A stretch of 64,000 bases of DNA, from the IMG/VR virus record IMGVR_UViG_3300025413_001393, positions 61,103 through 125,102 of that record. One strand, written 5' to 3'. A program made the translations under genes and the position numbers. This document shows, in pieces, positions 7,709 to 58,712 of this stretch; position 1 is the first letter of the stretch; each line of letters opens with the position of its first letter. Below the pieces are notes generated by a model, which had not been told where the DNA came from, ran no database searches, and saw nothing but the letters and a program-made list of their open reading frames with translations. This DNA comes from a virus.

Positions 7709-7750
7709 AAAAAAAGCTCCTTGGAAGGTTTAATTCCCAAGGAGCTTTTA
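7709..7750 (-). terminator. intrinsic terminator
   Basis: AGCTCCTTGG/CCAAGGAGCT 10-bp stem followed by T run on minus strand. Confidence 0.85.
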
Positions 7751-8380: not shown

Positions 8381-10930
8381 TTATGCTCCTAGCAACTCAA
8401 ACAAATCAGTCTGAACTTCTTTATTGAGATTAGGTGTAATCCAATCAATCGCTTCGTACAGACGTTCAACAGGCTGAGTAACAAGCTTTGCAAACATTTT
8501 ATCCCAATCAACTTGTAGATTGAATTCTTCTGGAAAAGCCACAGGATATGAAATTGCATCAAGGCCATAACTATTCTTTTTGCAATACAACTTTTTAACC
8601 TTTTGACCTGTACGAATTAATTCTAATTTTAAATCTAAGTTGTTTTTCTTAACTAAGATATTATACGCAATTGCTCCCTTAACATGAGATGGTGTTGCAT
8701 TTTGAAACTTAAACAACGAAGCTCCTTCAGCATACTTCTCTAAGTTATTAATAGACGAACGCAAGGCTACATCATCGGGACTGAGTTTACAAAATTCTTC
8801 ATAACTGTTACGATAAACTTCATTTGTAGTTTTTGGATTTTTTGTCAGCAAAGCTGTTTTTGTAATATTTTCAATAAACTTTTTTACTTTCTTAGGAGTT
8901 GTCGAACGGACAAGCTCTACACCGACAAATTTGAACTTATCCATCGGAATACCTTTATTGTCAAGAACTCGCAAAATATAACGCTTCTTCTGCAAAAAGA
9001 CACCAACATCTGCAATCGCTTCACGCTTGAAAACGTAACGAGGATCAATTGAAAATAATTCATTCTTAGCCCAGTTAAGAATTTCAGTATTAACTTCTTT
9101 GTCTATATCAGAAACGAGACTATAAACAACCGGATTAATCTTATCGCCTTCTAGAAGCTGAATACCTAGTTTGTCGAGCAAAGGCTGAATAGTAATGTAT
9201 ACAGAATCGGTGTCTTGATAAATTGTGCAAGACTTACCAGTAATGTCATACTTGGTTTTCAAATATTCGTCGATAATAGACGAACCAGCTTTTGCTACGT
9301 TTTGACCAGTAATAGTAATTGACATTGCATTGTCGATATCCATCAATGAAGAATGTTTATTAGCAAATGTTCCGTAGATTGAATTCAAATAAATTTTGAA
9401 TGTATATTGAAGAGTATCAAGATAAATCATTTTATCTTTTGTTTCCTTCGTAGGTGTTTTTTCTAATTCAAGTACGTGAAGTTGCTTTTGTATCTCAACA
9501 CGCTCTTTGTAAATTTCATTAATAAGATTTGGTATAACTCCCTTTGCTTTTTGAGAATACAAAACACCAGCTTTTGAAAGAGCAATCTTCTCTTGCTTCA
9601 TCATTTTCTTAAAATCTTCTACTTGTGTCGTGTGTGATTTACCGTTCACAAGTTTGATCGTAATCTCTTTATCTGTATCAATATCTCCTGTGACAATCTT
9701 ACCAATCTTAGTTTCAGGTGAGATGTTCAAAGTAATAATAGTATTAGGATACAGTGAATTTACGTCAAAGCTTGTAATAGCCGTTTGCAACCCACGTACA
9801 GGCTCTTTAACATAGCCTCCTTCATAAGACTCTCTATCTGCAGACGTACCGAATGTAGGAATAATATAACCTTGTTTGTGAGCTTGAATTGCAACAGCTC
9901 CTGTAACAATAGATACTTTTCCTAGTGCAGCTTCAAAGTTTGTGCAACCACGATACGCTAGCAATCTTACAATCTGCAAATACTTTAATTTGTGTTCTAG
10001 CTTTACGAGTAGATGAACGTCCTGAATGTTATAATCCACAAAGGTCTTCCAATCGGTTGACGCAAGTTCTCCAAGACTCGTTGCATTGTACGCAATCTTT
10101 CCTTCGTTTAATTCAATTTCCGAAATGTAATTCAGCGAATACGACTCACGCTCACCTACGGAAAACGTCTTGTAAATTTCAAGATAATCGATATGATTCA
10201 AACCGCACATAACCCACTTTGTAACTTCTTTACCAAATGTGCTCGTAAAGATTTTTCTGCTTGTTACTCTACCAACAGGCGAAAACTGCTGAATAAATTC
10301 TTCTCCAAACAACCGAATACAACGATTCATAATATATGGAATATCGAAACCTTCTGTATTCCAACCACTAACAATATCAGGATAGTCTGCTTTCCAAAAA
10401 TCTGCAAAGCGAATGAGTAAATCTTCTTCGTCTTTGCAACGATAATATATGCACTTGTCTAATGTGGGTGTGTACTGTTCAGTCAAACCCCAAGTATGAG
10501 TAGTTTGAGTGATAGTATCAAAAATTGTGATCAAATTAATTTGATCCTTTGCTTTTTCGGGAACTGGAAACTCTCCTACAGAGTAGGTTTCAATATCAAT
10601 AAAATATGTCTTGAGAGCAAATTTAGAAAATTCAGAATTGGTGTTGTGATCTTTATAGAGATCAATGAGAAACTGTTGCTCCGGTGATAGGTTATGAAAT
10701 AAGCGCTTGTTAGCAGTATTCTCAGTAAACCTTCTGCGATCAATACTATTCTTAAACGACTTTTTTACAAGCGAGGTTTTAAAAATAGAAGTACCATCCT
10801 TTGCACCTTCTTGCTCAATGTACAAGTATGGCCTAAAAGGAATTTCAGACGAAATTCTATCGCCATCTTCAGTCCACGTACTTAAAAAGATGCTTTCGTT
10901 AAAGGGATTATAATATACACTTCTATACAT
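8381..10930 (-). CDS. family B DNA polymerase (T4 gp43-like)
   Basis: ExoI DIETYS, ExoII GWNTEGFD, ExoIII YNIQD, motif A SFDVNSLYP, B KIYLNSIYG, C YQDTDS. Confidence 0.96.
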   Translation of the reverse strand: MYRSVYYNPFNESIFLSTWTEDGDRISSEIPFRPYLYIEQEGAKDGTSIFKTSLVKKSFKNSIDRRRFTENTANKRLFHNLSPEQQFLIDLYKDHNTNSEFSKFALKTYFIDIETYSVGEFPVPEKAKDQINLITIFDTITQTTHTWGLTEQYTPTLDKCIYYRCKDEEDLLIRFADFWKADYPDIVSGWNTEGFDIPYIMNRCIRLFGEEFIQQFSPVGRVTSRKIFTSTFGKEVTKWVMCGLNHIDYLEIYKTFSVGERESYSLNYISEIELNEGKIAYNATSLGELASTDWKTFVDYNIQDVHLLVKLEHKLKYLQIVRLLAYRGCTNFEAALGKVSIVTGAVAIQAHKQGYIIPTFGTSADRESYEGGYVKEPVRGLQTAITSFDVNSLYPNTIITLNISPETKIGKIVTGDIDTDKEITIKLVNGKSHTTQVEDFKKMMKQEKIALSKAGVLYSQKAKGVIPNLINEIYKERVEIQKQLHVLELEKTPTKETKDKMIYLDTLQYTFKIYLNSIYGTFANKHSSLMDIDNAMSITITGQNVAKAGSSIIDEYLKTKYDITGKSCTIYQDTDSVYITIQPLLDKLGIQLLEGDKINPVVYSLVSDIDKEVNTEILNWAKNELFSIDPRYVFKREAIADVGVFLQKKRYILRVLDNKGIPMDKFKFVGVELVRSTTPKKVKKFIENITKTALLTKNPKTTNEVYRNSYEEFCKLSPDDVALRSSINNLEKYAEGASLFKFQNATPSHVKGAIAYNILVKKNNLDLKLELIRTGQKVKKLYCKKNSYGLDAISYPVAFPEEFNLQVDWDKMFAKLVTQPVERLYEAIDWITPNLNKEVQTDLFELLGA

Positions 10931-10961: not shown

Positions 10962-12182
10962 TCAAACTAAATATTTTCTGTTCGGATCTCCGTATTTTGT
11001 AAAATACGATTCGTGATGCTTCATTAAATTGGCATCATCATCTAGCCAAAACTTTTCAGCATGAGCACGAGCTTTTTTACAATGTTCCACGTAGTTATTT
11101 TGATTTTTTGTTACCAACTTTAAACAATCAATAAATTCTGCACCTGTAGAGTATTTTAGGAAAGCATCTTTGTACGTGGGCATATCTGGACACACACAAG
11201 GAAGACCAAGTGCCCCTGCTTCAATAAGTTTAATGTTGGACTTACAACGATTAAAATGGTTGTCCTGAAGAGCTGCAAAAGTTACCTGAGCTCCAGAATT
11301 AGCCATAGCTTCAGGAAAGTCAGGAAGAGGAGCCCAATTGAAGAATTTCATTTCCCCTCTATCAATAAATGATTTAAGAGGCAAAGGATGAGAGCCATAA
11401 AAATGCCAATTAAAATCAGTACGGGTTTTAATAATTTCGGGAACAACCTTTTCAAAGTCATCTTGCTGATTTACACGGTTGAGAACGTCGACGTGTGTAC
11501 CAGATGCAAAAATTGCAATGATAGGCTTCTTCTTATTCTTTTCAAACTTCTTTGTGAGATCTCCAAGATTATAGTAACGATCAAACCACCACTTCATTAG
11601 ATAGTTAGGCAATGTTGATACGTTTTTGTTACCAGTCTTATCAATCAAATAATCTCTAAAGTAGTCACACGTAACAGTAACTTCATCCATCATAGAAATA
11701 ATATCCATAATGTTTTGTCTAATTTCGGGCGACGTAAATGCTTCTCTGTTTCTGTTATAAAGAGGAATATCTTCACCAAAGACTACGTCATCAATTTCAT
11801 AAATTAATTTAAGCCTTTTATTTTGTTTTGATATCTCTTTGAGGACTTGAACAAATTGCTTTTGCTGAAGTGTTGCTTGTCTTTGGAATTTTACTGCCTC
11901 AACAGTCTCGTAAAAACGAGGATCTAAAATCATAGTCGTTGAGTCCATTACAACAGCTTTATTGTGCAAATTCAAAAGCAAATTAGGTCCAATACCTCTG
12001 TAAAAACCACAACCACCATAGTCGGCCAAATAGCATATTGCTCTCTTAAGATCCTGGCCAGGAATTTCAATTGGTGGAATTACAGGACCTGGTTTAGCAA
12101 AATTATGCGAAGCTAAGCCGTGCGGAAGACCATGTGGAGCTCCGATGATATTTTGTAAGCCAAAATTAGATACCGTATACAT
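10962..12182 (-). CDS. GT-B fold glycosyltransferase (GT4-like)
   Basis: GGCGFYR N-terminus, YEIDD, FN..KSNIKLIEAGALGLP donor-binding motif. Confidence 0.7.
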   Translation of the reverse strand: MYTVSNFGLQNIIGAPHGLPHGLASHNFAKPGPVIPPIEIPGQDLKRAICYLADYGGCGFYRGIGPNLLLNLHNKAVVMDSTTMILDPRFYETVEAVKFQRQATLQQKQFVQVLKEISKQNKRLKLIYEIDDVVFGEDIPLYNRNREAFTSPEIRQNIMDIISMMDEVTVTCDYFRDYLIDKTGNKNVSTLPNYLMKWWFDRYYNLGDLTKKFEKNKKKPIIAIFASGTHVDVLNRVNQQDDFEKVVPEIIKTRTDFNWHFYGSHPLPLKSFIDRGEMKFFNWAPLPDFPEAMANSGAQVTFAALQDNHFNRCKSNIKLIEAGALGLPCVCPDMPTYKDAFLKYSTGAEFIDCLKLVTKNQNNYVEHCKKARAHAEKFWLDDDANLMKHHESYFTKYGDPNRKYLV

Positions 12183-12216
12183 ATTATTACCTATTGTGCT
12201 ATGTTGTTGTAGTCTA

Positions 12217-14010
12217 CTACTTGATTAATGAAATACCGTTTTGTTTTACTACATGAATAGTATGTTCAGCCTTAGCAGTCACTTCTACACCTCTATGCGT
12301 AATAATATAACACGATTCATTATTTTCGTTATACCTTTCACGCAATGCTTTTAACGTCAAGTATACTCCCTTGTCGTCCAATGAAGAATCGAGCAATTCA
12401 TCATAAAACACCGTACTGAAGATAACATCTCCTTGTAAGCGACGAATATCTGCAAATGCAAACAGACAAGCTAAGTCAATACGCTTACGTTCTCCACCAG
12501 AAAAATTAAAATACGACTTAGGCTGAGAACTCTCATCTATAATCTCTTCATCAAAGAATTCATTAAATTGACAAAGACAATTGGCTTCAAGTTTTTTAAG
12601 ATAGTATGCAAGTCTAGAATTCAAGACCTTAAGAATCTTTTTTACAATAAACGATTTAATACCTTCTTCGGAAATTACAAATTTTACCGTTTCTAAAATA
12701 TTAAGATCATTATTGAGTTTGTTAACTTTTTCTGTAGATTCTTGAACGCTTGTAGTAAGTGTTGTAATCTTACCTTTCAAATCGTTATTTTGCTCTCTAC
12801 TAATATTTGTAATTTCGGTTTCAGTGTCGACCAAATTAGTCTCTAAATGTGAAATACTCAATTTAGTACTATCGTTTTCAACTTGCTGTTTTGTTAATGT
12901 TGTTTTCTCCGATCTAAGCAAAACCGTTTTAGCTTTTAGATCGTTGATTGCAATTATTTCAAGTTCTATAAGACCATTAATTTTGTCTATAGCTTTTTTG
13001 TACGCAGCAATATTATTTTCGTGTTGTGATATTAATTCTTTAATATGCTGCACATGCTCTTCGGAATAATCTCTTTTGCAAGTTGGACAGGCATCTTTTG
13101 TAGTTTGAAGTTGTTTAATTTGTTTAGTTTCTAAAGTAACTTCGGCCTCTACTTTATGCAATTTAGACGCAAGACCACTTTTTGTCTGTTCACGTATAGA
13201 TATTTCATTTTCAATTTCAACTATTTGATCATCCAAAACTGACACGCTAACAGAATTTAAATCAACTAACTTTAGTTTAAGTGTATTGATATCAATTACC
13301 AGCTTATCTCTCTTTTCAGTTTGTCTAGCAATACGTTCTTGCTTTGATGATTCATAGTTTTCAAGCTGTTGAGTATTAAATTGCAACTCCTTTTCGAGAC
13401 TTTCAAATTTAACATATTCTACATCGTAATCCTTTTTAAGAATATTATAATCATCTCTCGCTTTTAAGACCATTGCAGTAAAAACCTCGAGTCCGAGAAC
13501 ACTTTCGATAAATTTTCTTTTATCGGTCTTAGGCAATGCCATAAAAGGTGTTGCACTATTGACAGACATAATTACAGAATTTTGAAATACAGTAGCAGGA
13601 GTATGTATTAATTCTTGTATATAAGCATTAGTTTTAGCTAAAGTTGACCTCGTTACATTCTCTCCGTTTTTTGTTAAAATGCACTTTGTTGGATTTAACT
13701 TTCTTGTAATAACGTATGTATCTGTAGCATTGTTGGACGTAATATCCAATGACAACGAAACCTCACACGTTTTTTTAGTTAAAGTATTGCCAATAAAATC
13801 TTTACCAAGTTCTCTAAGAGTAGTGCCATACAAAGCATAGTACAAAGCATCGCATATAGTACTCTTGCCACAACCGTTTTTTGAGTCTTCTTTGTCTAGA
13901 TTAGTTCCAATAATGGCATTTACACCATTTTTAAAATTTACATTAATTGGAGTGTCTCCAAACGACAAAAAGTTTTTTAGTTCAATAGATTTAAAAGTAA
14001 TAAACCGCAT
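12217..14010 (-). CDS. recombination nuclease ATPase subunit (T4 gp46, Rad50/SbcC-like)
   Basis: NFLSFG, NGCGKST, coiled coil with CPTC hook, FSGGE, FYDE..D, IITH. Confidence 0.93.
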   Translation of the reverse strand: MRFITFKSIELKNFLSFGDTPINVNFKNGVNAIIGTNLDKEDSKNGCGKSTICDALYYALYGTTLRELGKDFIGNTLTKKTCEVSLSLDITSNNATDTYVITRKLNPTKCILTKNGENVTRSTLAKTNAYIQELIHTPATVFQNSVIMSVNSATPFMALPKTDKRKFIESVLGLEVFTAMVLKARDDYNILKKDYDVEYVKFESLEKELQFNTQQLENYESSKQERIARQTEKRDKLVIDINTLKLKLVDLNSVSVSVLDDQIVEIENEISIREQTKSGLASKLHKVEAEVTLETKQIKQLQTTKDACPTCKRDYSEEHVQHIKELISQHENNIAAYKKAIDKINGLIELEIIAINDLKAKTVLLRSEKTTLTKQQVENDSTKLSISHLETNLVDTETEITNISREQNNDLKGKITTLTTSVQESTEKVNKLNNDLNILETVKFVISEEGIKSFIVKKILKVLNSRLAYYLKKLEANCLCQFNEFFDEEIIDESSQPKSYFNFSGGERKRIDLACLFAFADIRRLQGDVIFSTVFYDELLDSSLDDKGVYLTLKALRERYNENNESCYIITHRGVEVTAKAEHTIHVVKQNGISLIK

Positions 14011-14042
14011 TACTATAAAGATAGCTCAAACAAAATTAAAAT

Positions 14043-14666
14043 CTACGCTCGATTTAACCATATACTGTCAGACTGTATAGTCTCATTACAAATATACTCA
14101 AAATACACCATTTCGAAGTTGAAAGATTTTAATAAGTGCTCCACATCCAAAAACAATTTTTGGTTTTTCCATATTTCTTTGTGCTCACACTCAATATGCA
14201 TTGATCTAATGCTTTTAATTTTATTCTCAAAACTCTCAATAACTTCATATGTTAACCCTTCTACATCAATTTTACACAAATCGATATAATCTAAATTAAT
14301 TTGTTTGAGAAGTTGTTTACCTGTTATTGTATTTACAGTTATTTTTTCGGTTGTTATATTATTATAAAAGCCGTCAACTCTATCCAAAATAGAACTCACC
14401 CCAATATACTCTTCATCTTTGACGCAGTTAAAACTAAATGAGGAGTTTGTATTAGAAATTGCTGACTCAACTAAATTAAAATGCGGATAAATTTCTTTAA
14501 TTTTTTTAATTTGAGACGGATTTGGTTCAACTAACCAAACATTCTCATCAGATATGTTGAAATATTTTTTTAGTGTATTGCTGTCATGTCCATCTCTAGA
14601 ACCTATTTCTAATATAGATTTTGGTTTAAGGTTAGCACTTAAAATGGCGTTTATATATTCATTCAT
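14043..14666 (-). CDS. FkbM-family SAM-dependent methyltransferase
   Basis: ILEIGSRDG, VEPNP, AIS, LCKIDVEG motifs. Confidence 0.85.
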   Translation of the reverse strand: MNEYINAILSANLKPKSILEIGSRDGHDSNTLKKYFNISDENVWLVEPNPSQIKKIKEIYPHFNLVESAISNTNSSFSFNCVKDEEYIGVSSILDRVDGFYNNITTEKITVNTITGKQLLKQINLDYIDLCKIDVEGLTYEVIESFENKIKSIRSMHIECEHKEIWKNQKLFLDVEHLLKSFNFEMVYFEYICNETIQSDSIWLNRA

Positions 14667-15355
14667 TGTTCAAAAAGTTCTTTTAGTTTTTTGACATCTT
14701 TGTCTCGATGCGTTGATCTACATCTTATGTGATATAAATGTTCAGGGGATATATAGTCTACTTCTTCATTACCAATTTGATACAAAGGTTCAACGTCCGT
14801 AAAACTAAGTCTTGTTGCTGTTTCGTTAATAGGAATATCAAAATTTTTCATAAACAGACCAAGAGCTACATCATCAATAAGATTGTGTTCCCACATTGTT
14901 TTATTTTTTACAATTAATTCTACTAAATCTTTTGACAAAAAATATCCACTACCGGAAGCAAATTTTATTAAATTACAAAACGTTCCAATTATTCCACAAT
15001 AAAATTTTGTGGAAGGTTTTGTACTGACAAAGTTTATTAATTTATTTGTATCAACAAAAGAACCCATATTACATCTAAAAATATAATTAAAATTGTACAT
15101 TTGAAGAGCCCATTCAAATGCCATAATCGTTTTTACACCAATATTATGCATACCATCGTTACACGGAAGTATTAGTTCTTCGTCACTTAAAATAGGGTAG
15201 TTAGATTTGTTGATTTGTTTTTCGTTATCAGTATAAAACAATATTTCTACATCTTTATGCTTTCGAGTGTACCACGTTTGTTTAATTGTGTTGTGCAGTT
15301 CCCTATATTCGGAATTAGATGAACCTAATATAAAAACTAATATTTTTTTAGTCAT
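14663..15355 (-). CDS. glycosyltransferase, GT31/galactosyltransferase-like
   Basis: KT..AFEW, FASGSGYFLSKDLV, IDDVALG motifs. Confidence 0.7.
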   Translation of the reverse strand: MTKKILVFILGSSNSEYRELHNTIKQTWYTRKHKDVEILFYTDNEKQINKSNYPILSDEELILPCNDGMHNIGVKTIMAFEWALQMYNFNYIFRCNMGSFVDTNKLINFVSTKPSTKFYCGIIGTFCNLIKFASGSGYFLSKDLVELIVKNKTMWEHNLIDDVALGLFMKNFDIPINETATRLSFTDVEPLYQIGNEEVDYISPEHLYHIRCRSTHRDKDVKKLKELFEQ

Positions 15356-15357
15356 AG

Positions 15358-16098
15358 TTAGTATAGATACGATACGAGTGTATCAAGTTCATTTTTGTAC
15401 GTGGCATACGGTCTCAACATATGGCAGTCAATGTAGTGCTGAGACTTAATAAGGTGCGGATTGTAATTCCAACAAATTCTATCAATTCTGCAATTAGCAG
15501 GTCCAGTAGGCAACCAACCACGTCCCAGTAACTCAATTGTGTTTGGATTCGTTTGTTTAAATTCGTTTATTTTTTGAAAAAGTATTTTTTGATCCGAACT
15601 CCAACCAAAATTTAACGAATTTACATACTCTACAAATTCTTTCCAAGTAATATTAATGTTTAATATTTTTCTAAACAAATCAGAATGACCAAAGTTGTAG
15701 CATATTGGATATTCGGAATTTGATAAACATTCTTTATGATCTGAACTAAAAACATAAAATTTATCCATAGACAATTGTTTTATATTTTCAATAAAATAAT
15801 TTTTAGACATTGGAAGCATATCAATATCAGTTAAAAGAATATTACCTTCAAGATGATTCGGTAAAAATAATCTAACAATTTGTGATTGTAATCCGGTATT
15901 GATACCATCTACACGTTTAAATTTTTTTATTAAACCGTATTCGTCTTCAAAAAAATCAGAGTCTTCATCTCCTATTAAACCAAGCACAGGAGTTATGTTA
16001 AAAACTGTTTTCCAAACTTTTGATACTAAAGGCCAAAAATCAATATACATCGGATTAGTATCAGAACCCATTATTGCATATTCAATTTTAGTGTTCAT
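15358..16098 (-). CDS. putative GT-A glycosyltransferase
   Basis: QSQIVRL, LLTDIDMLP (DxD), within GT cluster. Confidence 0.55.
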   Translation of the reverse strand: MNTKIEYAIMGSDTNPMYIDFWPLVSKVWKTVFNITPVLGLIGDEDSDFFEDEYGLIKKFKRVDGINTGLQSQIVRLFLPNHLEGNILLTDIDMLPMSKNYFIENIKQLSMDKFYVFSSDHKECLSNSEYPICYNFGHSDLFRKILNINITWKEFVEYVNSLNFGWSSDQKILFQKINEFKQTNPNTIELLGRGWLPTGPANCRIDRICWNYNPHLIKSQHYIDCHMLRPYATYKNELDTLVSYLY

Positions 16099-16730
16099 TG
16101 TTCCGGTTGATTGTCAAAATATACTTGGCCCACAAAAGTTGCTCCCTTTTCCAAAGGTTTGTGAGGTGGAAACGGTTTTTTTTCCATAAAAGGATCATGA
16201 ACAACGCTATTATGTCGAATTATAGGATATACAGCGTTTGCAAGAAAATACTGATCACAGCAGTAACTATCGTAATCGTTCCAATGAGATAACAAAGAGT
16301 TCATACTAAACACATTTGCTGTACCACCCCACATTCCTGCTTGTATAGGAAAATTATGATTAGGATGATCTCTCATAATATGAAATTGTTTATCTGATGA
16401 TAACCATTCATCTACAGCAGCACGCTCTCTCCAATTTATTCTTGAATCTAAATCTCTAACTATATACTTGTCAACATTTGAGTCATCGTTAACAAAAAAT
16501 CTCCAATATGCCCCATAGCACTTGCCTCTTTTGTCTAATACTTTTCTGATATCGACGTCGTAAGTTTCATGTATGCTTTTTAAAAACTCTAGTGAAACAG
16601 TTTCATCTACGTATAAACGAACTTTCCATTCCGGATATATCGTTAATGCAGCTTTTAAATTACCAGCAACGCCGTCTGTATATTTAGGATTGTTACCCCA
16701 AAGACTAAAAGATATTACGTTATTTTTCAT
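16095..16730 (-). CDS. putative GT-A glycosyltransferase (SFSLWG/RDxD family)
   Basis: ISFSLWG..PKY, YWRF, IVRDLDSR, IMRDHP.H, AGMWG. Confidence 0.55.
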   Translation of the reverse strand: MKNNVISFSLWGNNPKYTDGVAGNLKAALTIYPEWKVRLYVDETVSLEFLKSIHETYDVDIRKVLDKRGKCYGAYWRFFVNDDSNVDKYIVRDLDSRINWRERAAVDEWLSSDKQFHIMRDHPNHNFPIQAGMWGGTANVFSMNSLLSHWNDYDSYCCDQYFLANAVYPIIRHNSVVHDPFMEKKPFPPHKPLEKGATFVGQVYFDNQPEQ

Positions 16731-17570
16731 TTACATTAATTTTATTAATTTTGTTGCCAAAAAATCATCTGATGATGTATATTGTTTAGCCAAATTAAAA
16801 TTTTCTTCAACTGCTTTTAATTTTTGTTCGTAAACGCTTCTGGATAATTTTATCTTTAACAAATCTTCATACGAATTAAAGAGTATAAAACCATCAGTAT
16901 TAAAATACTCTTTAATATTCGGAGGCCCCCAGTAAATTGGGATACAACCAGACAACAAACAATCTATTAATTTTTCAGTAAAATAATGAGTCATTTGTAT
17001 ATTTTCAATAACAATACTAAACATATAAGTTTTAAAAGCTTCAATTTTGTTTTGTAGAAACCCATTTTGTGTTCCCCACCCATACCCATCAATACCTACG
17101 CAATTATTGTATATCTGATGTCTTAAAATATGTCCTTTATATTGTTGTTTACCAGATAAAATTATGGAACAATTTTTATTTTTTTCACCCTTGTATAAGT
17201 TGTATTCATCATCTTTAATATATGTGCCACCTGGACTGTTTGGAATAAATTTTTTTGGATTTAATGCAATTAGGTCGTTTCTATATGTTAAAATATAATC
17301 AAATTTGTGAGCAACCTTATCAATATTATTATGTACCAAAGGCTGTACTGCTGGAGATTCGAGACACCATGCAATTTTTAATTTACTTTTAACTTTATCT
17401 ACTTCTTCTCCAAGAATAAATTCATCTGTAAATAAAGTTATGCCTTCATAGTCATTTTGTCTTTGTACAAACTGAATGTTTTTTGGTTTTTTGTTTGCTG
17501 TTGATGTCCAATAACCATCTTCTCTGAGATGATGTTGACAAGTGTTATCAAATATGTTTACCGTTACCAT
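16731..17570 (-). CDS. GT10 (alpha-1,3-fucosyltransferase-like) glycosyltransferase
   Basis: YMFSIVIEN..HYFTEKLIDCLLSGCIPIYWG = GT10 signature. Confidence 0.85.
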   Translation of the reverse strand: MVTVNIFDNTCQHHLREDGYWTSTANKKPKNIQFVQRQNDYEGITLFTDEFILGEEVDKVKSKLKIAWCLESPAVQPLVHNNIDKVAHKFDYILTYRNDLIALNPKKFIPNSPGGTYIKDDEYNLYKGEKNKNCSIILSGKQQYKGHILRHQIYNNCVGIDGYGWGTQNGFLQNKIEAFKTYMFSIVIENIQMTHYFTEKLIDCLLSGCIPIYWGPPNIKEYFNTDGFILFNSYEDLLKIKLSRSVYEQKLKAVEENFNLAKQYTSSDDFLATKLIKLM

Positions 17571-18307
17571 GTTTTAATATAGGATTGAAGTTGATCAATT
17601 GGCATTAAGTCAATTTTTTGCAATTCGTTTATATTATGACCATTATAGATATTGTGATCATATGTAGTTTCTCCTCTAAAGTGAGTCAAATGAAGTATAG
17701 GAGAATTAGTTCTATATTTTTTATAACCTAGCTTTGTATATCTAACATTAATTTCATCATCGTCATACCCAACATTTTTTATATGAGGGTTGAACCCACC
17801 TGCTTCAATAAAACAATCCCTATTAAACATAACACATCCTCCAACTGATCTTTGTGATAATAAATTACAATCCTTTAAATTGATTTCCTTAATTGTGTTA
17901 TTTTGTATCTGTTCAACTAGGTTTAGCGGTATATCATAAAAATAACCGTTATAGGGATAAGCAAATCCGTATCCTGTTAATAATTTTTCGGATGCTTCAA
18001 GCAAATTACTCTTAGTTACTAAAACATCTACATCATACAAACAGACAATTTTATTTTTAGAAAAACGTTTAAACAATTCGTTACCAGATAACATTTTATT
18101 ATAAAAATGCTCATCAGTTATATCTTTGCAAATGTATTGGGAATTTAAAAAGGTTACCTTTTGAGTATGTTTGTAATGTTCATTTACAAACACATTTTTG
18201 GCTCCATTACGTTTTAAATAATCAATAGTTATAGTAAGATTTCTTACTCTGTCAGAATGATCTGCGTAGATAGGAATTAAGAAATCTATATCGTCGAGTG
18301 TTATCAT
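17564..18307 (-). CDS. GT2/GT7-type glycosyltransferase
   Basis: YDVD (DxD), GGCVMFNR..F.EAGGFN...GYDDDE (GT7 C-terminal motif). Confidence 0.8.
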   Translation of the reverse strand: MITLDDIDFLIPIYADHSDRVRNLTITIDYLKRNGAKNVFVNEHYKHTQKVTFLNSQYICKDITDEHFYNKMLSGNELFKRFSKNKIVCLYDVDVLVTKSNLLEASEKLLTGYGFAYPYNGYFYDIPLNLVEQIQNNTIKEINLKDCNLLSQRSVGGCVMFNRDCFIEAGGFNPHIKNVGYDDDEINVRYTKLGYKKYRTNSPILHLTHFRGETTYDHNIYNGHNINELQKIDLMPIDQLQSYIKTW

Positions 18308-18308
18308 A

Positions 18309-19145
18309 TTATGGTTTAATAGTTTTAAGAAATTTTATTACTTGCTCTTGAGGTACGTTTATCGTATTGCTTGGATAACAACCATTTTTACGTTTATACA
18401 ATTCTGCATTAGTTTGCACGTTTTGTAACCATTCAGTTGTATTTTTTGATGTTGTACTATTTTGAATGGCATCTTTCTGCGATGAAATATAATTTATACT
18501 ATTATCAATGTCAGCAAACCACCAAAACGGAGGATGATAACCAGCTTTAATAATTCTGTTAGTATGATCTACGTGTTCCCAAGCATTTTTATAATCCTCG
18601 TCGATAAATCCAACCTTATCCAACACTTCTTTAGTAAAAAACGAAAACATACCTGTTATATGCGTATATAAAGCTATTTTGCAATCGTTGTAATCAAAAA
18701 TTATTCTTGGATTAGGTTTTGAATTTTCTTTTAATTCGTGTCTGTTATGCAAATCAAAATTTTGAATTGTTTGCTTTCGGTTAAAAGGAGAACCAGGTCC
18801 AAAGTTAAAATGTTGAATACCAGTCTTTTTGCTTACATTGATATACTGTTTAAAAACCGTTTGGTCGAGAATGATCATATCATCTTCAATCAAAAATATA
18901 TAATCACAATCTTGTTCTAACAAATATTTTAATGCTTCATTCTTTGCTTTACCAACTCCAATTTTTCCTGTTGTATGCTTAATAAAATCTACATTAGGAT
19001 GAGTGTGAATTGTTTTTTTAAAACCGTCATCCACTACAACAATTTTATCAATAACTGCAATATTTTTGTCAATGGAGTCTAATAAAGTATTAAGATAATC
19101 TTCTCGTTCGCACGTAATAATGCCTATACCAATTTTATTATTCAT
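18309..19145 (-). CDS. GT2 family glycosyltransferase
   Basis: IGIITCER, VVVDDG, GVGKAKN, IFLIEDD, VGFIDE...WEHVD. Confidence 0.85.
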   Translation of the reverse strand: MNNKIGIGIITCEREDYLNTLLDSIDKNIAVIDKIVVVDDGFKKTIHTHPNVDFIKHTTGKIGVGKAKNEALKYLLEQDCDYIFLIEDDMIILDQTVFKQYINVSKKTGIQHFNFGPGSPFNRKQTIQNFDLHNRHELKENSKPNPRIIFDYNDCKIALYTHITGMFSFFTKEVLDKVGFIDEDYKNAWEHVDHTNRIIKAGYHPPFWWFADIDNSINYISSQKDAIQNSTTSKNTTEWLQNVQTNAELYKRKNGCYPSNTINVPQEQVIKFLKTIKP

Positions 19146-20202
19146 GAGACGTAATGCTTACTTTATATAATTCTAGACACTTATCAAGAACTTCCTTTTT
19201 AGTAGCTCTGGTTTCAACGTGTTCTACAAATTCGTGAAAAGCTGTTTCAATATCAATAGAAAGCTTTTTAACTTCTTTTGTATCAGCTTGTGCATCATCT
19301 AAAATATTAAATTCAGTTCTAAACTGTAAAGGATTATATTGCGCTAGTTTAGTTGCTAACAAATCTAATGTAAGCGTATCAATTTTTGTATCTACATACA
19401 AACTAACAATGTTGTTATTAACAATAGATGGAAGATCAGAATATTTCTTAGCTAACAATTCTGATATTTTAATTCTAAAATGTTTTGGAGTTACATTGTT
19501 TTCAATAAACTCTATAGAAAGATCGTCAAAATTAATGATTGATACTCCTTTTTGCTGACCTCTGTCTCCAAAATCCATTTCATAAGGAGAACCAAGATAA
19601 AGAATATAACTTTTGTTTTCGTATTCTCTAAAATCTCTCATATGAAAATGACCTGTAACAACAGCTTTTGCTTTTTCAAGTAAATCTTCAGATGTTTCAC
19701 CATGATCACAAATTTTGTTAGCAGTCATATGAAAGTTAGCAATTTCAAAATGACCAATTAACATATCTACTGGATCTAATTCTTTTATACTAGTTTTCCA
19801 AGGACAAAATACAATTTTCTTATCGTTTATTTCGAGTGTTGTCTGCTCAACAAACACATGAACATTTTTATTAGCTAATATCTCTACAGAATTAACTTCA
19901 ACAGTAGAAGAAAGAAATGCATCGTGATTGCCGGGTATCAGATAAACATTGTATTCAGAAAGCTTGTTAAAAAATTGCTTTGCAATGTGTAATGTGTTGA
20001 CACCAATTTCGTGTCTGTTATGAAACACATCCCCAGCAAAAAAGATCGTATCTAGTTTTTGCTCAACCATTACTCCTTTAATCCAATCAGCTAAATTAAG
20101 AGCAATATTATGCCACGTTTGAGAGTCTTGATGAACTCCCAAATGCAAATCAGAAAAAAATAAAACTTTATTCTGTTTAGGATTAATCTTCAAAGTGTCC
20201 AT
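19138..20202 (-). CDS. recombination nuclease subunit (T4 gp47, Mre11/SbcD-like)
   Basis: FSDLHLG, AGDVFH, PGNHD, GHF, GHFH, YLGSP; start moved to ATG 20202. Confidence 0.92.
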   Translation of the reverse strand: MDTLKINPKQNKVLFFSDLHLGVHQDSQTWHNIALNLADWIKGVMVEQKLDTIFFAGDVFHNRHEIGVNTLHIAKQFFNKLSEYNVYLIPGNHDAFLSSTVEVNSVEILANKNVHVFVEQTTLEINDKKIVFCPWKTSIKELDPVDMLIGHFEIANFHMTANKICDHGETSEDLLEKAKAVVTGHFHMRDFREYENKSYILYLGSPYEMDFGDRGQQKGVSIINFDDLSIEFIENNVTPKHFRIKISELLAKKYSDLPSIVNNNIVSLYVDTKIDTLTLDLLATKLAQYNPLQFRTEFNILDDAQADTKEVKKLSIDIETAFHEFVEHVETRATKKEVLDKCLELYKVSITSHE

Positions 20203-20671
20203 TAGCTGTATAATCGTCAGATGATTCGTGATGAGTATTTTTTCTTGAAGGGAGTTCACCACTGCATATATGATTCTCGTATACTTCGTCTTGATATCTC
20301 TTTAAAGTTTCGAAATCTTTCTTGTGCTTCTTAATACAATTTTGAAATGCGTGATATGCAACTTTAGTAAAATACGAAAAAGGATTATAACCAACACCAC
20401 ACTTGTATCTCTTTCTTCTTAGAGCTGTCATCATCTTAACAATTGCATCTCCTTGCATTTCAGTTTTGAAACTATAGCTATAAAAATTTCGAGCTAATCC
20501 TAATCTAGTTGCAATCATTTGAATCATTGCAGCAAGCTTTTCTGAAATCTCTTCTCCATCATAATAAGTTACAATTAACGCCTCCATTTCAATAGGATCG
20601 ATATAGACGTCCTTTAATTCTTCCTTTGTACGTCTAACTCTTTTTTGAGTTACTGGCTTAGTTGTTGTCAT
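20183..20671 (-). CDS. late transcription sigma factor (T4 gp55-like)
   Basis: IATRL...NFYSYSF..EM.GDAI, NPFSYFT..AYHAF..CIKK. Confidence 0.88.
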   Translation of the reverse strand: MTTTKPVTQKRVRRTKEELKDVYIDPIEMEALIVTYYDGEEISEKLAAMIQMIATRLGLARNFYSYSFKTEMQGDAIVKMMTALRRKRYKCGVGYNPFSYFTKVAYHAFQNCIKKHKKDFETLKRYQDEVYENHICSGELPSRKNTHHESSDDYTANGHFED

Positions 20672-23256: not shown

Positions 23257-23691
23257 ATGGACCTTGGTCACTGGCAACTTTCTGAAGGTTTAGATCCTAA
23301 AGAAGACGCATTTGGTTTCATCTATCTTATTACTTGTACGATCAACGATAGAAAATACATCGGAAAGAAACAATGTGTTTCTAAGGTCAAACGTCCTCCA
23401 TTAAAAGGAAAGAAGAAATGTCGCAGGTCGACTAAAGAAAGCGATTGGAAGACATATACCGGCTCTTCAAACGAGCTTAACGCTGACATTGCTAGATACG
23501 GTAAAGATAAATTTAATTTTACAATTTTAGAGTGGTGTGATTCTAAATTTGCATTAGGATATAGGGAGATTAAAAGACAACTTGCCGAAGACGTCATTTT
23601 AAAAGAAGAATACTACAACGGTATCGTGAATTGTCGTCTTGGCAAAAGTCCAAAAAACTTTTTAATAAATGAGCACCAAAACCTTTCCTAA
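23257..23691 (+). CDS. GIY-YIG family nuclease
   Basis: FGFIYLIT...RKYIGKK, ESDWKTYTGSS, YYNG. Confidence 0.85.
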   Translation: MDLGHWQLSEGLDPKEDAFGFIYLITCTINDRKYIGKKQCVSKVKRPPLKGKKKCRRSTKESDWKTYTGSSNELNADIARYGKDKFNFTILEWCDSKFALGYREIKRQLAEDVILKEEYYNGIVNCRLGKSPKNFLINEHQNLS

Positions 23692-24109
23692 ATCTCGTGT
23701 TTGTGTTATAGACATATACCCTTTTTTTGAACAAGGGCTTAAGAAGGCTATTGAGTTTTCAAACAAAAATGGTATTCATATGAATACGAGTGATGGTAAA
23801 AAAGTTATAATGGGGTTTTGTCTTGAGTATATTGAAAAAGCTTATAACGAAACACAAAGCCAATATCCTAAAGTATTGTGTATGGGTTCAAAAGCTAAAA
23901 ATTCAATACTTCAAGCATTTATTGATAAACATTTTAACACTATAATGAAACACGTACCGTATTCATACTGTGGTAATGTATCTATTCAATCGCCAGATCT
24001 AGAAGCAGCAGCTCAAAATAGTCTTAAGCAAACAAAGCCTGAACGCAATTATACGGCTTTGAAATTAAAAATGGGAATGAAGAAGCTTATAAAAAAGCCT
24101 ACTCAGTAG
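23669..24109 (+). CDS. hypothetical protein
   Basis: 146-aa ORF overlapping previous gene end. Confidence 0.55.
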   Translation: MSTKTFPKSRVCVIDIYPFFEQGLKKAIEFSNKNGIHMNTSDGKKVIMGFCLEYIEKAYNETQSQYPKVLCMGSKAKNSILQAFIDKHFNTIMKHVPYSYCGNVSIQSPDLEAAAQNSLKQTKPERNYTALKLKMGMKKLIKKPTQ

Positions 24110-39167: not shown

Positions 39168-39421
39168 TGACTTGTTAAGGCAACATATTCTTGTTTAGCG
39201 TTTCTAATAGCTTCGTGATCCATTGTAGGACCACTAATAGCTTTAATAAGCATCTCAGCAATTTTTAAACCTGCTGCAGATTTTTCGTTGGTTGTTTCTG
39301 GAGCGTATTTCAATTTGGTATATATATTTTTAGAAGAATCCCAAGTATGAAAATACGGACCAGACTCCAAATCTGTTGGAACTAATGTATCGTTATGTGT
39401 TTGTAAGTAATGTGGATTCAT
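39164..39421 (-). CDS. hypothetical protein
   Basis: 85-aa ORF. Confidence 0.45.
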   Translation of the reverse strand: MNPHYLQTHNDTLVPTDLESGPYFHTWDSSKNIYTKLKYAPETTNEKSAAGLKIAEMLIKAISGPTMDHEAIRNAKQEYVALTSQ

Positions 39422-39959
39422 GTATTTGATTATAGATTATATCTACAGCTCGTTCAACTGTCATTTTACCATAAGCTGTAGATCTTGGATGTATTCTTAT
39501 ATCAGGCCATTCTGGTACTTCATAAGGAGAGTCAATTCCAGACATATCCTTAATAAGGCCTGCTCTAAATTTTTTATATAAACCTTTAAGGTCTCTCTCT
39601 TCACATATCTCAAGAGGTGTATCCATATAGACTTCAATAAATCTAGCATTACAATACTTCGTTAAAATATCTCGTGCTAATGCTCTCATTTGTTTAAGAG
39701 GAGAAATACTTGCAACAATAACAACCTCAGCTCTTTGAAATTCAATCATATTTCTTACAGCATAGATCATTGTATTAACAGCTTTCCATCTACCTTCAAT
39801 ATCAAATCCAATAGGAGTTTTTGAATTGTATCTTAAAGTATCAGCATCAGCTACAGCAGACCTATAACCTTCAGCTTTAAGCTTTTCATTTAAAGCATTA
39901 GCGGTAGTAGTCTTACCAGCACCTGACAAACCTGTAATCCAAACAACAGTCTTATTCAT
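39393..39959 (-). CDS. cysC: adenylylsulfate (APS) kinase
   Basis: WITGLSGAGKTT, D.D.LR, ISP, EVY..TPLEICEERD.KGLYKK.RAG, GIDSPYE.P..PD. Confidence 0.92.
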   Translation of the reverse strand: MNKTVVWITGLSGAGKTTTANALNEKLKAEGYRSAVADADTLRYNSKTPIGFDIEGRWKAVNTMIYAVRNMIEFQRAEVVIVASISPLKQMRALARDILTKYCNARFIEVYMDTPLEICEERDLKGLYKKFRAGLIKDMSGIDSPYEVPEWPDIRIHPRSTAYGKMTVERAVDIIYNQIHESTLLTNT

Positions 39960-49890: not shown

Positions 49891-49964
49891 TGGCAGATCG
49901 GCAAGGATTTGCACCCTGACAAAGACTTTTGGAGAGTCTCGTGCTACTATTACACTACCGACCT
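49891..49964 (-). tRNA. tRNA-Trp(CCA), copy 1
   Basis: cloverleaf, loop CTCCAAA, encoded CCA. Confidence 0.9.
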
Positions 49965-55651: not shown

Positions 55652-55726
55652 TGGTACACGAGGAGGGGATCGAACCCCCGACCAACGCAGTGTAAGTGCG
55701 CCGCTCTACCGCTGAGCTACCCGTGC
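55652..55726 (-). tRNA. tRNA-Val(UAC)
   Basis: cloverleaf, loop CTTACAC, CCA. Confidence 0.93.
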
Positions 55727-55776
55727 ATTAATATAAAAATAATAGCTGGTTAAAAACATTTTTCAACAACAAAAAG

Positions 55777-55850
55777 TGGAGGGGGTGAAGGGAATCGAAC
55801 CCTCTCATAAACCTTGGCAAGGTCTCAAGCTACCGTTACATCACACCCCC
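55777..55850 (-). tRNA. tRNA-Gly(GCC)
   Basis: cloverleaf, loop TTGCCAA, U73, CCA. Confidence 0.92.
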
Positions 55851-55855
55851 AAATA

Positions 55856-55937
55856 TGCTCATGGAGGGACTCGAACCCCCACTCCTTTCGAAATTAGATC
55901 CTAAGTCTAACGCGGCTGCCAATTACGCCACATGAGC
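55856..55937 (-). tRNA. tRNA-Leu(UAG)
   Basis: class II cloverleaf, loop CTTAGGA. Confidence 0.92.
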
Positions 55938-55944
55938 TAAAACA

Positions 55945-56017
55945 TGGAGGATATCGGACTCGAACCGATCACCTATAGCTTGCAAAGCTACCGCTCTACC
56001 AGATGAGCTAATCCCCC
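55945..56017 (-). tRNA. tRNA-Ala(UGC)
   Basis: loop TTTGCAA, G3:U70. Confidence 0.93.
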
Positions 56018-56039
56018 CAATAATTAGGTTAATAAAATG

Positions 56040-56124
56040 AGCCTAGGATCGGAATCGAACCGATCAACGGGTATTACCCCTAAAGGTTTTGCAGACCTCC
56101 GCTTAGCCAATTAGCTTCCTAGGC
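56040..56124 (-). tRNA. tRNA-Cys(GCA) with long variable arm
   Basis: loop CTGCAAA, U73, extra arm GGG-TAATA-CCC. Confidence 0.85.
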
Positions 56125-56130
56125 ATTAAA

Positions 56131-56220
56131 TGGAAGAGGGAGTGGGATTCGAACCCACGAAGGCTTTTAAACCTTTCAAGTTTTCAAGACTAGCTCGTTA
56201 AACCGCTCCGACATCCCTCC
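56131..56220 (-). tRNA. tRNA-Ser(UGA)
   Basis: class II, loop CTTGAAA, CCA. Confidence 0.9.
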
Positions 56221-56233
56221 GTAAATTGTAAAA

Positions 56234-56320
56234 AGGAAGCTGAGGGATTCGAACCCTCGGAGGCGATAAAGCCTCGGCAGTTTAGTAAACTGCAGCCTTA
56301 AACCGCTCGGCCAAACTTCC
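56234..56320 (-). tRNA. tRNA-Ser(ACU), A34 anticodon
   Basis: class II, stem GCAGT/ACTGC, loop TTACTAA. Confidence 0.88.
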
Positions 56321-56326
56321 GTAAAA

Positions 56327-56398
56327 TGGTGTCTCTTGAAGGTAACGCTCCTTCTCATCATCGTTCGTAGCGACGAGTCTAAATCTTTTAGAAGAGAC
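56327..56398 (-). tRNA. tRNA-Arg(ACG), atypical D and T loops
   Basis: acceptor GTCTCTT/AAGAGAC, loop CTACGAA, T loop AGCGTTA, CCA. Confidence 0.75.
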
Positions 56399-56408
56399 AA
56401 AAAAAAAA

Positions 56409-56483
56409 TGGTGCGGTATGAGAGAATCGAACTCTCGTCTCAGCTTTGGAAGAGCCACGTAATGGCCATTATACCAATACCGC
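56409..56483 (-). tRNA. tRNA-Gly(UCC)
   Basis: loop CTTCCAA, CCA. Confidence 0.9.
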
Positions 56484-56487
56484 AAAA

Positions 56488-56562
56488 TGGTCAGGAGGCT
56501 GGGATTTGCACCCAAACCGATTCTTTCACAGAGAATAATGCTACTATTACACCACAACCTGA
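56488..56562 (-). tRNA. tRNA-His(GUG)
   Basis: loop CTGTGAA; U-1:A73 instead of G-1:C73; two acceptor mismatches. Confidence 0.82.
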
Positions 56563-56569
56563 TAAAAAA

Positions 56570-56646
56570 TGGCGGAACCGAAGGGACTTGAACCCTCGAC
56601 CCCCGCAGTGACAGTGCGGTGCTCTAACCAGCTGAGCTACGATTCC
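56570..56646 (-). tRNA. tRNA-Asp(GUC)
   Basis: canonical, loop CTGTCAC, CCA. Confidence 0.95.
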
Positions 56647-56652
56647 GTTTAA

Positions 56653-56725
56653 TAGGACTAGTAGGATTCGAACCTACGACAAACACGTTATCAACATGCC
56701 ACTCTACCAACTGAGTTATAGTCCT
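56653..56725 (-). tRNA. tRNA-Ile(GAU)
   Basis: loop TTGATAA. Confidence 0.92.
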
Positions 56726-56732
56726 GAAAAAA

Positions 56733-56805
56733 TGGCAGGAGAGGGAATCGAACCCTCAATCTTTGCGTTATGAGCGCAACGACTTAACCGTTTGTCCATC
56801 CTGCG
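56733..56805 (-). tRNA. tRNA-Met(CAU) (elongator/initiator/Ile2 unresolved)
   Basis: loop CTCATAA; C1xC72 mismatch but no triple G-C anticodon stem. Confidence 0.85.
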
Positions 56806-56833
56806 TTAAAAATTAATAGCTCTAGTAGTCTAT

Positions 56834-56904
56834 TGGGTTATGGGAGAATTGAACTCCCCTCTAGCGGTTAAAAGCCGCTTGCTTCACCTCAAAGCTTATA
56901 ACCC
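56834..56904 (-). tRNA. tRNA-Lys(UUU)
   Basis: loop CTTTTAA. Confidence 0.9.
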
Positions 56905-56911
56905 TAGAATA

Positions 56912-56993
56912 TGGGCAGAGAAGGACTCGAACCTTCGAACTCCAAGGAGAGGAGATTTACAGTCTCCGGCAATTGCCGCTATGCGATCTACCC
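56912..56993 (-). tRNA. tRNA-Tyr(GUA)
   Basis: class II, loop CTGTAAA. Confidence 0.92.
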
Positions 56994-56997
56994 TAAA

Positions 56998-57072
56998 TGG
57001 CACGCCGGGTAGGAGTCGAACCTACGTAAGGCAGTTTTGGAGACTGCTGCACAGCCACTGTACCACCGACGT
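56998..57072 (-). tRNA. tRNA-Trp(CCA), copy 2
   Basis: loop CTCCAAA, G73, CCA; unrelated in sequence to copy 1. Confidence 0.9.
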
Positions 57073-58709: not shown

Positions 58710-58712
58710 AAT

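Follow-up and report, generated by a model that had tools for sequence, protein, structure and literature searches.

Which glycan is built, and on which acceptor, by a group of glycosyltransferase genes that lies among the replication genes of a virus? This question is raised by a stretch of 64,000 nucleotides (the window), which is the right-hand 64 kb of the IMG/VR contig IMGVR_UViG_3300025413_001393 (125,102 bp in total). In the window, seven genes for glycan synthesis separate the recombination genes gp47 and gp46, and an eighth, encoding a GT-B enzyme, lies between gp46 and the polymerase gene gp43. The seven genes are one allele of a hypervariable glycan-synthesis island at a fixed locus, where whole cassettes are exchanged via homologous recombination in the flanking genes. 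The GT2 gene beside gp47 and the GT-B gene beside gp46 are the conserved members of the locus. The product is probably a fucosylated, O-methylated glycan of several sugars, and a phage protein is tentatively favoured as its acceptor.

The source of the window is a distant T4-like phage, which is a member of a large uncultured lineage. The contig has a GC content of 35% and a CheckV completeness of ~59%. Its family-B polymerase gp43 shares 31–33% identity with the polymerases of Pelagibacter and Synechococcus myophages (tblastn), and a megablast search of the island region against 50,697 phage records gave zero matches. The locus was compared with 23 related viral contigs that carry gp46 and with 34 metagenome contigs that carry the GT-B gene. 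In this set, G000 is the genome studied here and G001 is a complete relative of 218 kb (CheckV 100%). Genomes of the lineage measure ~210–240 kb, and the metagenome contigs bearing the GT-B gene reach 243 kb. The "moraphage" of PMC12619734 belongs to a different lineage. Protein families were assigned by Pfam matches above the curated cut-offs and by PHROGs, and AlphaFold2 (AF2) models were compared by Foldseek.

The ten open reading frames (ORFs) from gp47 to the GT-B gene are all on the minus strand, either spaced by 0–34 nt or overlapping by 4–8 nt. gp47 (19138–20262) encodes an SbcD/Mre11-like nuclease subunit (Metallophos; phrog_100, E 5e-62) and is the conserved upstream flank; its stop overlaps the start of the GT2 gene by 8 nt. 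The downstream flank is gp46 (12217–14010), which encodes an SbcC/Rad50-like ATPase subunit (SMC_N/AAA_23; phrog_77, E 7e-91). A first-pass annotation of this DNA had described a glycan-gene operon between the two flanks and a GT-B gene before the polymerase; the ORFs and their family calls bear out this description. Recurrence of such cassettes in related phages was proposed there as a check, and a cassette was found at the 47/46 junction of every relative that shows both flanks, in the form of 1.5–9 kb of tightly packed co-directional genes. In the nearest isolate, phage C48C1, the gp47 and gp46 genes abut, and T4 has just two small ORFs, 46.1 and 46.2, at this junction.

The content of the island varies greatly. 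When 115 proteins from 13 islands were grouped by similarity, they fell into 60 clusters, with 43 singletons. Cluster sharing is uncoupled from core identity: the contigs L001 and L005, with gp46 proteins 78% identical, share one cluster, and L001 and L003, at 70%, share six. Two distant phages, L027 and L147, have GT10 enzymes 59–61% identical to that of the window, although their core proteins reach an identity of just 31–55%, and orf211 adjoins an orf246 homologue in L028 as well. A pool of cassette genes is common to divergent phages. The GC content of the island is 29.5%, compared with 34.5% for the window. Among the island genes of the window, only the GT2 gene beside gp47 recurs widely, with homologues of 28–75% identity in most relatives. 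The GT-B gene lies between gp46 and gp43 in every relative that shows both, at 55–99% identity. Its conservation is about that of the polymerase and above that of gp46, and 952 homologues were found in metagenomes. The GT-B gene is a core gene of this large uncultured lineage.

Swapping between near-identical strains, together with hypervariability, is the most informative property of the locus. The metagenome contig L150 is 97–100% identical to the window in nucleotide sequence over dda, gp55 and gp47, down to ~19,200, and gp47 itself is 99% identical. The GT-B of L150 is likewise 97–100% identical. Identity drops to 64–83% inside the GT2 gene, and no alignment exists across 18,315–14,010. 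It is 59–85% over gp46 and is back to 94–99% below ~12,300, from the 3' end of gp46 into the GT-B gene. Sliding nucleotide identity thus places the exchanged segment at 12300–19200, with breakpoints that are sharp but whose coordinates are approximate. The cassette of L150 encodes a different protein with a GT2 domain, a Methyltransf_23 enzyme, a protein of 450 aa that includes an orf211-like domain, and several unknown proteins. As this identity profile shows, part of gp46 was carried along in the exchange.

In its population genetics, the island matches the O-antigen and capsule loci of bacteria, because of the strain swap, the sharing of genes with distant phages and the low GC content. Like those loci, it has a fixed position, a GC content below that of its flanks and a mosaic content of glycosyltransferases, methyltransferases and sugar-nucleotide enzymes. 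Whole-cassette replacement by recombination in the flanks is also common to both, as is divergence that bleeds into a flank, here gp46. Unlike them, the phage island has no priming transferase, Wzx/Wzy or ABC exporter, and it is carried by a lytic-type phage genome.

The first gene of the island (18309–19145) encodes a GT2-family GT-A glycosyltransferase. Its match to PF00535 is marginal (25.0 bits against a cut-off of 23.3), phrog_2456 matches with E 5.5e-31, and the DxD motif is DCD at residues 79–81. The second gene (17564–18307) encodes a GT-A enzyme resembling beta-4-galactosyltransferases, which matches PF02709 (32 bits against a cut-off of 23) and phrog_15655 (E 3e-24) and has DVD at residues 92–94. 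PF13733, the N region of GT7, was not matched in the Pfam search. The enzyme is therefore labelled GT7-like, since only one of the two GT7 domains was matched. The third gene (16731–17570) encodes a GT10 fucosyltransferase-like enzyme, which matches PF00852 over residues 132–240 (39.3 bits against a cut-off of 23.9). Its translation reads ...VIENIQMTHYFTEKL...IPIYWG. This fits EN...Y.TEK...IPIYWG, which we take, from the H. pylori fucosyltransferase (FucT), to be the alpha-1,3-FucT signature.

The sixth gene (14663–15355) encodes a GT31-like glycosyltransferase (PF01762, 48.6 bits against a cut-off of 23) that is without the canonical DxD (DDD) and has RCNMGS in its place. In an alignment of 30 homologues, the consensus of its subfamily is RTNxSSY, with N96 invariant where the DxD is expected, while GSGY..S.D and DDV are kept. 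This pattern marks a non-canonical subfamily that is itself conserved, and the gene is not in decay. The last island gene (14043–14666) encodes an FkbM-family S-adenosylmethionine (SAM)-dependent methyltransferase. It matches PF05050 (44.5 bits against a cut-off of 22.7) and phrog_8156, and it has the SAM-binding motif LEIGSRDG at its N-terminus. Its substrate is presumably the O-methyl acceptor position of a sugar. The FkbM family includes NoeI, the fucose methyltransferase of Nod factors.

The two genes between the GT10 and GT31-like genes, orf211 (16095–16730) and orf246 (15358–16098), gave zero Pfam or PHROG matches. orf246 has 205 homologues, and D91 and D93 are invariant in an alignment of 26 sequences. 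A search of its profile against PDB sequences found nothing significant. Its AF2 model has a pLDDT of 94, and the best PDB matches in Foldseek are the GT8 structure 3tzt, the GT6 enzymes ABO GTA/GTB and BoGT6a (E 3e-6 to 5e-5, probability 1.00, TM-score ~0.45–0.5). On the model, orf246 is predicted to be a GT-A fold glycosyltransferase with a conserved DxD and with retaining neighbours of the GT8/GT6 type. By sequence it is placed outside the GT8 and GT6 families, in a family without a name, because neither Pfam model matches. Domains like orf246 are found fused to FkbM in giant viruses.

orf211 encodes a putative GT-A-type glycosyltransferase of an unnamed family with 1588 homologues, in which RDxD at residues 92–95 (D93/D95) and H117, D121 and H125 are invariant. 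The assignment follows from a profile match to the GT-A domain of A64R (PDB 2p6w), an enzyme for capsid glycans in the chlorovirus PBCV-1; the match is borderline (E 8e-4) and covers ~90 residues; structural neighbours of orf211 in the ESM Atlas serve as leads only. The kinship of orf211 and orf246 was considered and rejected, as the two are not detectably related (hhalign probability 1.2%). Relatives of orf211 are present in the genomes of at least 210 bacterial or archaeal species, and the bacterial homologues are TPR fusions outside polysaccharide loci. One of them, in Aeromonas bivalvium (L115:5449–6690), is a 413-aa TPR fusion just after secA and near lpxC and zapD. No glycan locus surrounds the orf211 homologues in Aeromonas and Bibersteinia, which gives a weak hint only.

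The GT-B enzyme (10962–12182) falls below the cut-off in a sequence search (PF13692, 19.9 bits against 27), and its family profile found nothing significant among PDB sequences. Its AF2 model has a pLDDT of 85, and the top Foldseek matches are the retaining GT4 enzymes BshA, MshA and PimB (E 3e-11), so that a GT4-like GT-B fold is predicted. Residues 1–45 are predicted to be disordered (pLDDT 53–58), yet G14, A15, P16, G18, P20, P36 and P41 are invariant across 18 relatives. This N-terminal segment may be a docking or acceptor peptide.

The genes of the island and the GT-B gene are real: the homologues of each number from tens to thousands, and they show conserved residues. The orf211, orf246 and GT31-like families have from ~200 to 1900 database homologues or cluster representatives each. 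The first-pass annotation proposed a toolkit for an O-methylated glycan of several sugars, and the family assignments and conserved residues support it, with the enzymes forming an intact co-directional set. The possibility that the glycosyltransferases are degenerate or lack the DxD was also raised there. It is answered for most of the set by the conserved homologues and by the invariant DxD of orf246 and orf211, but the GT31-like enzyme is without the canonical motif.

This exception bears on whether the genes have a common product at all. The 47/46 junction could be a hyperplastic region of unrelated accessory genes with differing acceptors, some of them non-functional passengers. Such regions between core modules are known in T4-like genomes (PMC7029224), and the small ORFs 46.1 and 46.2 of T4 lie at this very junction. 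The families in the relatives speak for a common function. A Pfam tally of 108 island proteins from the relatives contains GT2, Methyltransf_24, FkbM, NAD-epimerases, GDP-mannose 4,6-dehydratase, GT25, GT11, GT10, DegT aminotransferase, C-methyltransferase and a thiamine pyrophosphate (TPP) enzyme, and the named families across 13 islands overwhelmingly belong to glycan chemistry. In addition, the genes are translationally coupled through overlaps of 4–8 nt, catalytic motifs are conserved across each family, and cassettes swap as whole units. A collection of unrelated passengers is thus highly improbable.

How, then, would the enzymes work together? The cassette genes are translationally coupled inside a unit of replication genes, and none of the eight enzymes has a membrane-like segment (maximum 19-residue hydropathy ≤1.24). 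Such a segment occurs in only 1 of 116 island proteins overall. No priming phosphoglycosyl transferase, flippase, exporter, polymerase or ligase was found among the 116 island proteins or the top 25 Pfam families of the relatives' islands. The eight soluble enzymes would be made together with the replication genes, in the early or middle period, and would act in the cytoplasm of the infected cell. A sugar primer would be extended to a short, branched oligosaccharide of the fucose/galactose/hexosamine type, which the FkbM enzyme would cap by O-methylation. The conserved GT-B and GT2 enzymes may give the invariant inner part of this glycan, and the cassette its variable outer part. With GT-A enzymes of both the inverting and the retaining kind, a fucosyltransferase and an FkbM enzyme, the set should yield a glycan of several sugars that probably carries fucose and O-methyl groups. 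Elsewhere in the window, an APS kinase gene (PF01583, E 1e-43), a sulfotransferase gene (PF13469/PF00685) and an adjacent gene of 312 aa lie at 39393–39959 and 57891–59651. All three have homologues of 56–71% identity in the complete relative G001. The lineage thus seems to have kept a sulfation module, whose target may be the same glycan.

Phage proteins are the favoured acceptor, although this preference is held tentatively. The acceptor would be a phage-made protein, most likely a protein of the virion surface, and the island would give each strain its own glycan coat, or "serotype". An acceptor intrinsic to the phage is favoured because the GT-B gene belongs strictly to the core, with a conservation close to that of the polymerase. 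Strict core status is unusual for genes acting on host structures, which are usually accessory. The resemblance of orf211 to A64R, the TPR fusions and the fusions of orf246-like domains to FkbM are leads towards a protein acceptor, not proof of it.

A candidate acceptor occurs elsewhere in the genome, outside the window (L024:1254–12265). There, a gene matching PF11397, the GT60 family of polypeptide GlcNAc-transferases (E 1.7e-71), lies beside a gene for a 525-aa fusion of GT7N and GT7C. Three genes downstream of this pair, a 1242-aa NHL-repeat protein is encoded, with the late promoter TATAAATA 14 nt upstream. This protein contains an alternating-threonine (Thr-x)n repeat of ~68 residues (TQTQTQ...) at aa 1148–1215. 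The pair and the Thr-repeat protein look like a candidate module for protein O-glycosylation with its own acceptor. PF11397 was rejected as a general primer, being absent from four relatives searched. A prolyl-4-hydroxylase (PF13640), which was sought for a Skp1-type pathway, is absent.

Comparable protein glycosylation is known from chlorovirus PBCV-1, from the fibrils of Megavirinae and from the capsids and tail tubes of mycobacteriophages. As in these systems, soluble virus-encoded glycosyltransferases and methyltransferases would make methylated oligosaccharides in the cytoplasm, and the gene sets are specific to a clade or strain. The similarity of orf211 to A64R and the orf246-like/FkbM fusions in giant viruses are further points in common. 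The phage island differs in that it is known from its genes alone, lies away from the structural genes, has no late promoter and matches A64R only at a borderline level.

Several points weigh against a virion acceptor. Elsewhere in the genome, the late promoter TATAAATA is found ahead of the portal gene and of further genes presumed to be late. From dda to pol43, no gene has it in the 60 nt before its start, even with one mismatch allowed. The cassette sits within the replication-gene unit, and the virion glycosyltransferases of mycobacteriophages sit with structural genes. Sets of GT10, GT11, GT25 and GT31 enzymes are equally typical of the outer-core synthesis of lipopolysaccharide (LPS) or lipooligosaccharide (LOS). 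The complete relative G001 has neither the GT60/GT7 pair nor the Thr repeat; they are therefore not a general primer and acceptor. The genome is only ~59% complete, and the product is known from enzyme families, so glycan and acceptor are both predictions. Similarity to A64R has also been reported for DNA-modifying GT-A enzymes (bioRxiv 10.1101/2023.12.21.572611).

The absence of a late promoter is accommodated more easily if the host envelope is remodelled. Early enzymes would glycosylate the LPS/LOS core or a lipid-linked precursor at the cytoplasmic face of the inner membrane, and the host machinery would export the product. The altered surface or debris would block superinfection by rival phages or the wasteful adsorption of progeny, and cassettes would vary as host core structures and competitor receptors vary. 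The superinfection gene imm of T4 is likewise found among replication genes. GT10, GT11, GT25, GT31-like enzymes, GDP-mannose dehydratase and DegT are classic LPS/O-chain families, and LOS-type synthesis needs peripheral glycosyltransferases only, so that the absence of membrane proteins is compatible with it. Host-envelope modification is also the standing hypothesis for the glycosyltransferase islands of pelagimyophages (PMC7029224) and cyanomyophages (PMC12801897). Against this stand the GT-B gene, a strict core gene at 55–99% identity in every relative, and the failure to find a priming phosphoglycosyl transferase, flippase, polymerase or ligase among the 116 island proteins. In addition, the orf246 and orf211 families are reported mainly from viruses, among them giant viruses without an LPS-bearing host, yet orf211 relatives occur in at least 210 bacterial species. 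Envelope remodelling is ranked second, as possible but not likely.

The position of the genes could also point to DNA as the acceptor, a lead that the first-pass annotation had drawn from T4. In DNA hypermodification, the GT-B and/or GT2 enzyme would place the first sugar on a modified base, the variable cassette would extend it, and modification-dependent restriction would select for variation. The genes lie between recombination and replication genes and beside the polymerase, and the alpha-glucosyltransferase gene (a-gt) of T4 adjoins gene 47, as was confirmed in T4. Switching at the level of strains would suit an arms race with type IV restriction. Adducts of several sugars have a precedent in the poly-arabinosyl-5-hydroxycytosine of RB69 and DLP3 (PMC13326640), and a thymidine adduct of ~1 kDa is found in YerA41 (PMC9023294). 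The lineage also carries the 7-deazaguanine genes FolE2, QueD and QueE, as well as a DpdA-like gene, which directly follows the polymerase gene in G001 and lies beside a GT-A gene in the present genome.

The characterised sugar-bearing DNA bases all start from a hydroxyl, which comes from the action of either a homologue of thymidylate synthase or a TET/5mYOX dioxygenase (PMC13326640; bioRxiv 10.1101/2023.12.21.572611). PF00303 (ThyA), PF12851 (Tet_JBP) and PF00145 (C5-methyltransferase) were unmatched in this contig, which is 59% complete, and in the complete G001. The Tet_JBP control matched nowhere, so that the Tet_JBP result is the weakest of the three negatives. This absence of a ThyA-family hydroxymethylase/hydroxylase, Tet_JBP and C5-methyltransferase from contig and complete relative speaks against the DNA lead. 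A link between the GT-B enzyme and T4 a-gt (GT72) did not hold up either, because no relationship is detectable between them (hhalign probability 0.8%, with a family profile of 18 sequences). In structure, the GT-B enzyme is closest to generic GT4 enzymes, and in BFVD no DNA alpha-glucosyltransferase ranks above 38th place. Moreover, islands of 5–13 genes with aminotransferase, C-methyltransferase and TPP enzymes exceed known DNA pathways, and characterised DNA pathways usually cluster with the base-modifying enzyme (bioRxiv 10.1101/2023.12.21.572611).

The locus resembles the DNA glycosylation systems of T-even phages, RB69 and DLP3 and those linked to 5mYOX in having glycosyltransferases among replication and recombination genes, a repertoire that varies between relatives and a GT-B enzyme of ~400 aa near 46/47. 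It differs from these systems, since no gene for a hydroxylated base was detected, the GT-B enzyme is not related to a-gt by sequence, and its enzymes are far more numerous and diverse than those of the DNA pathways known. We know of no 7-deazaguanine DNA base that offers a sugar-accepting hydroxyl. Because known deazaguanine bases offer no obvious sugar acceptor, DNA is kept as an unlikely acceptor overall.

A narrower form of this idea is a glycan on a base other than a hydroxylated pyrimidine. The candidate would be a 7-deazaguanine derivative installed by the DpdA-like enzyme, on which the GT-B and GT2 enzymes would start a complex, fucosylated, methylated and perhaps sulfated glycan that varies between strains and that the cassette extends. 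This is considered very doubtful. If true, a deazaguanine-linked glycan would mean that DNA can be hypermodified by a new chemistry, with variation of a serotype-like kind. The label "DpdA-like" rests solely on PHROGs of unknown function (phrog_19058) and on gene neighbours; no TGT/DpdA Pfam model matched the protein, and a PDB sequence search also gave nothing significant. In G001 (L016:15854–18727), the DpdA-like gene comes straight after the polymerase and is followed by formyltransferase-like, thymidylate-kinase-like and GTP cyclohydrolase genes. In the present genome (L025:15317–16108), it lies between a P-loop kinase gene and a Glyco_tranf_2_5 GT-A gene.

How far is this locus new? The annotation's statement that there is no comparable characterised phage system was too strong at the level of annotation, since glycosyltransferase islands of cyanomyophages and pelagimyophages and poly-arabinosylated or ~1-kDa DNA modifications are known (PMC12801897, PMC7029224, PMC13326640, PMC9023294). 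T4-like cyanomyophages encode up to 13 glycosyltransferases, including GT10, GT11, GT2 and GT25, and the 13 of S-SCSM2R belong to at least seven families (PMC12801897). Pelagimyophages have a hypervariable "host recognition cluster" rich in glycosyltransferases (PMC7029224). The present locus shares with the islands of these aquatic T4-like myophages (P-SSM2, S-SM2, S-SCSM1, S-SCSM2R and pelagimyophages) a large genome, a conserved core and islands of soluble GT2, GT8, GT10, GT11 and GT25 enzymes with sugar-nucleotide enzymes. Homologues of the window GT10 at ~34% identity lie inside the S-SM2 and S-SCSM2R clusters, and the function is predicted in all of them.

In contrast to the cyanophage and pelagiphage islands, which lie in the structural/tail-fibre region or downstream of nrdAB, the present island splits gp47 and gp46 within the replication module. 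It also differs in its conserved anchors GT2 and GT-B, in the swap between near-identical strains with its breakpoints, and in its distinct lineage (polymerase identity 31–33%). Glycosyltransferase-rich islands of T4-like aquatic phages are thus already known at the level of annotation. New are the lineage, a locus that splits the Mre11/Rad50-like pair, the conserved anchors and the replacement of a cassette, with breakpoints mapped, in strains that are otherwise near-identical.

The large T4-like phages of aquatic habitats rank with the most abundant viruses known, and they repeatedly carry many glycosyltransferases whose roles are only predicted. The lineage described here provides a handle on them, with a single fixed locus, the anchors GT-B and GT2 and two natural strains that are near-identical except for the cassette. 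Should the glycan coat the virion, serotype-like surface variation would be kept by cassette exchange, which bears on adsorption, grazing, immune recognition and phage engineering. If it is placed on the host envelope or on DNA, the island would be a fast-evolving weapon in phage–phage or phage–defence conflict. The orf211, orf246 and non-DxD GT31-like families are abundant and worth biochemical study under any reading.

The island belongs to a minus-strand replication and recombination module of the T4 type, which consists of orf137, the dda helicase gene, the gp55 late sigma gene, gp47, the seven island genes, gp46, the GT-B gene, gp43 and two small ORFs. The family-B DNA polymerase gene gp43 (8381–10930; identified by tblastn) is the next co-directional gene after the GT-B gene. 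A strong intrinsic terminator on the minus strand (7712–7749), with a 15-bp stem followed by a T run, closes the orf137-dda-55-47-island-46-GT-B-43 unit, and it is the sole strong minus-strand terminator between 22,600 and 7,700. A scan for sigma-70 promoters and terminators performed no better than on shuffled sequences, and only this terminator was usable. Downstream of it lie uvsX, a gp41-like helicase gene and gp32.

A few further features of the genome were observed. A pair of plus-strand ORFs at 23257–24109 breaks the minus-strand module, and the first of them matches the homing-endonuclease families phrog_7363 and phrog_314. ARAGORN found 17 tRNA genes, of which 16 form a minus-strand cluster at 55652–57155, and tRNA-Trp stands alone at 49891–49964. 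In several relatives, the polymerase match is broken near residue 577–593 by inserts of 0.5–1.6 kb (L002:9701–10191, L003:14359–15871, L007:14830–16391 and L139:12020–15021). The polymerase of L139 is also broken near residue 160–190, and uvsX is split in L002; the window polymerase is uninterrupted. These inserts in the polymerase and uvsX genes of relatives look like intein, intron or homing-endonuclease insertions.

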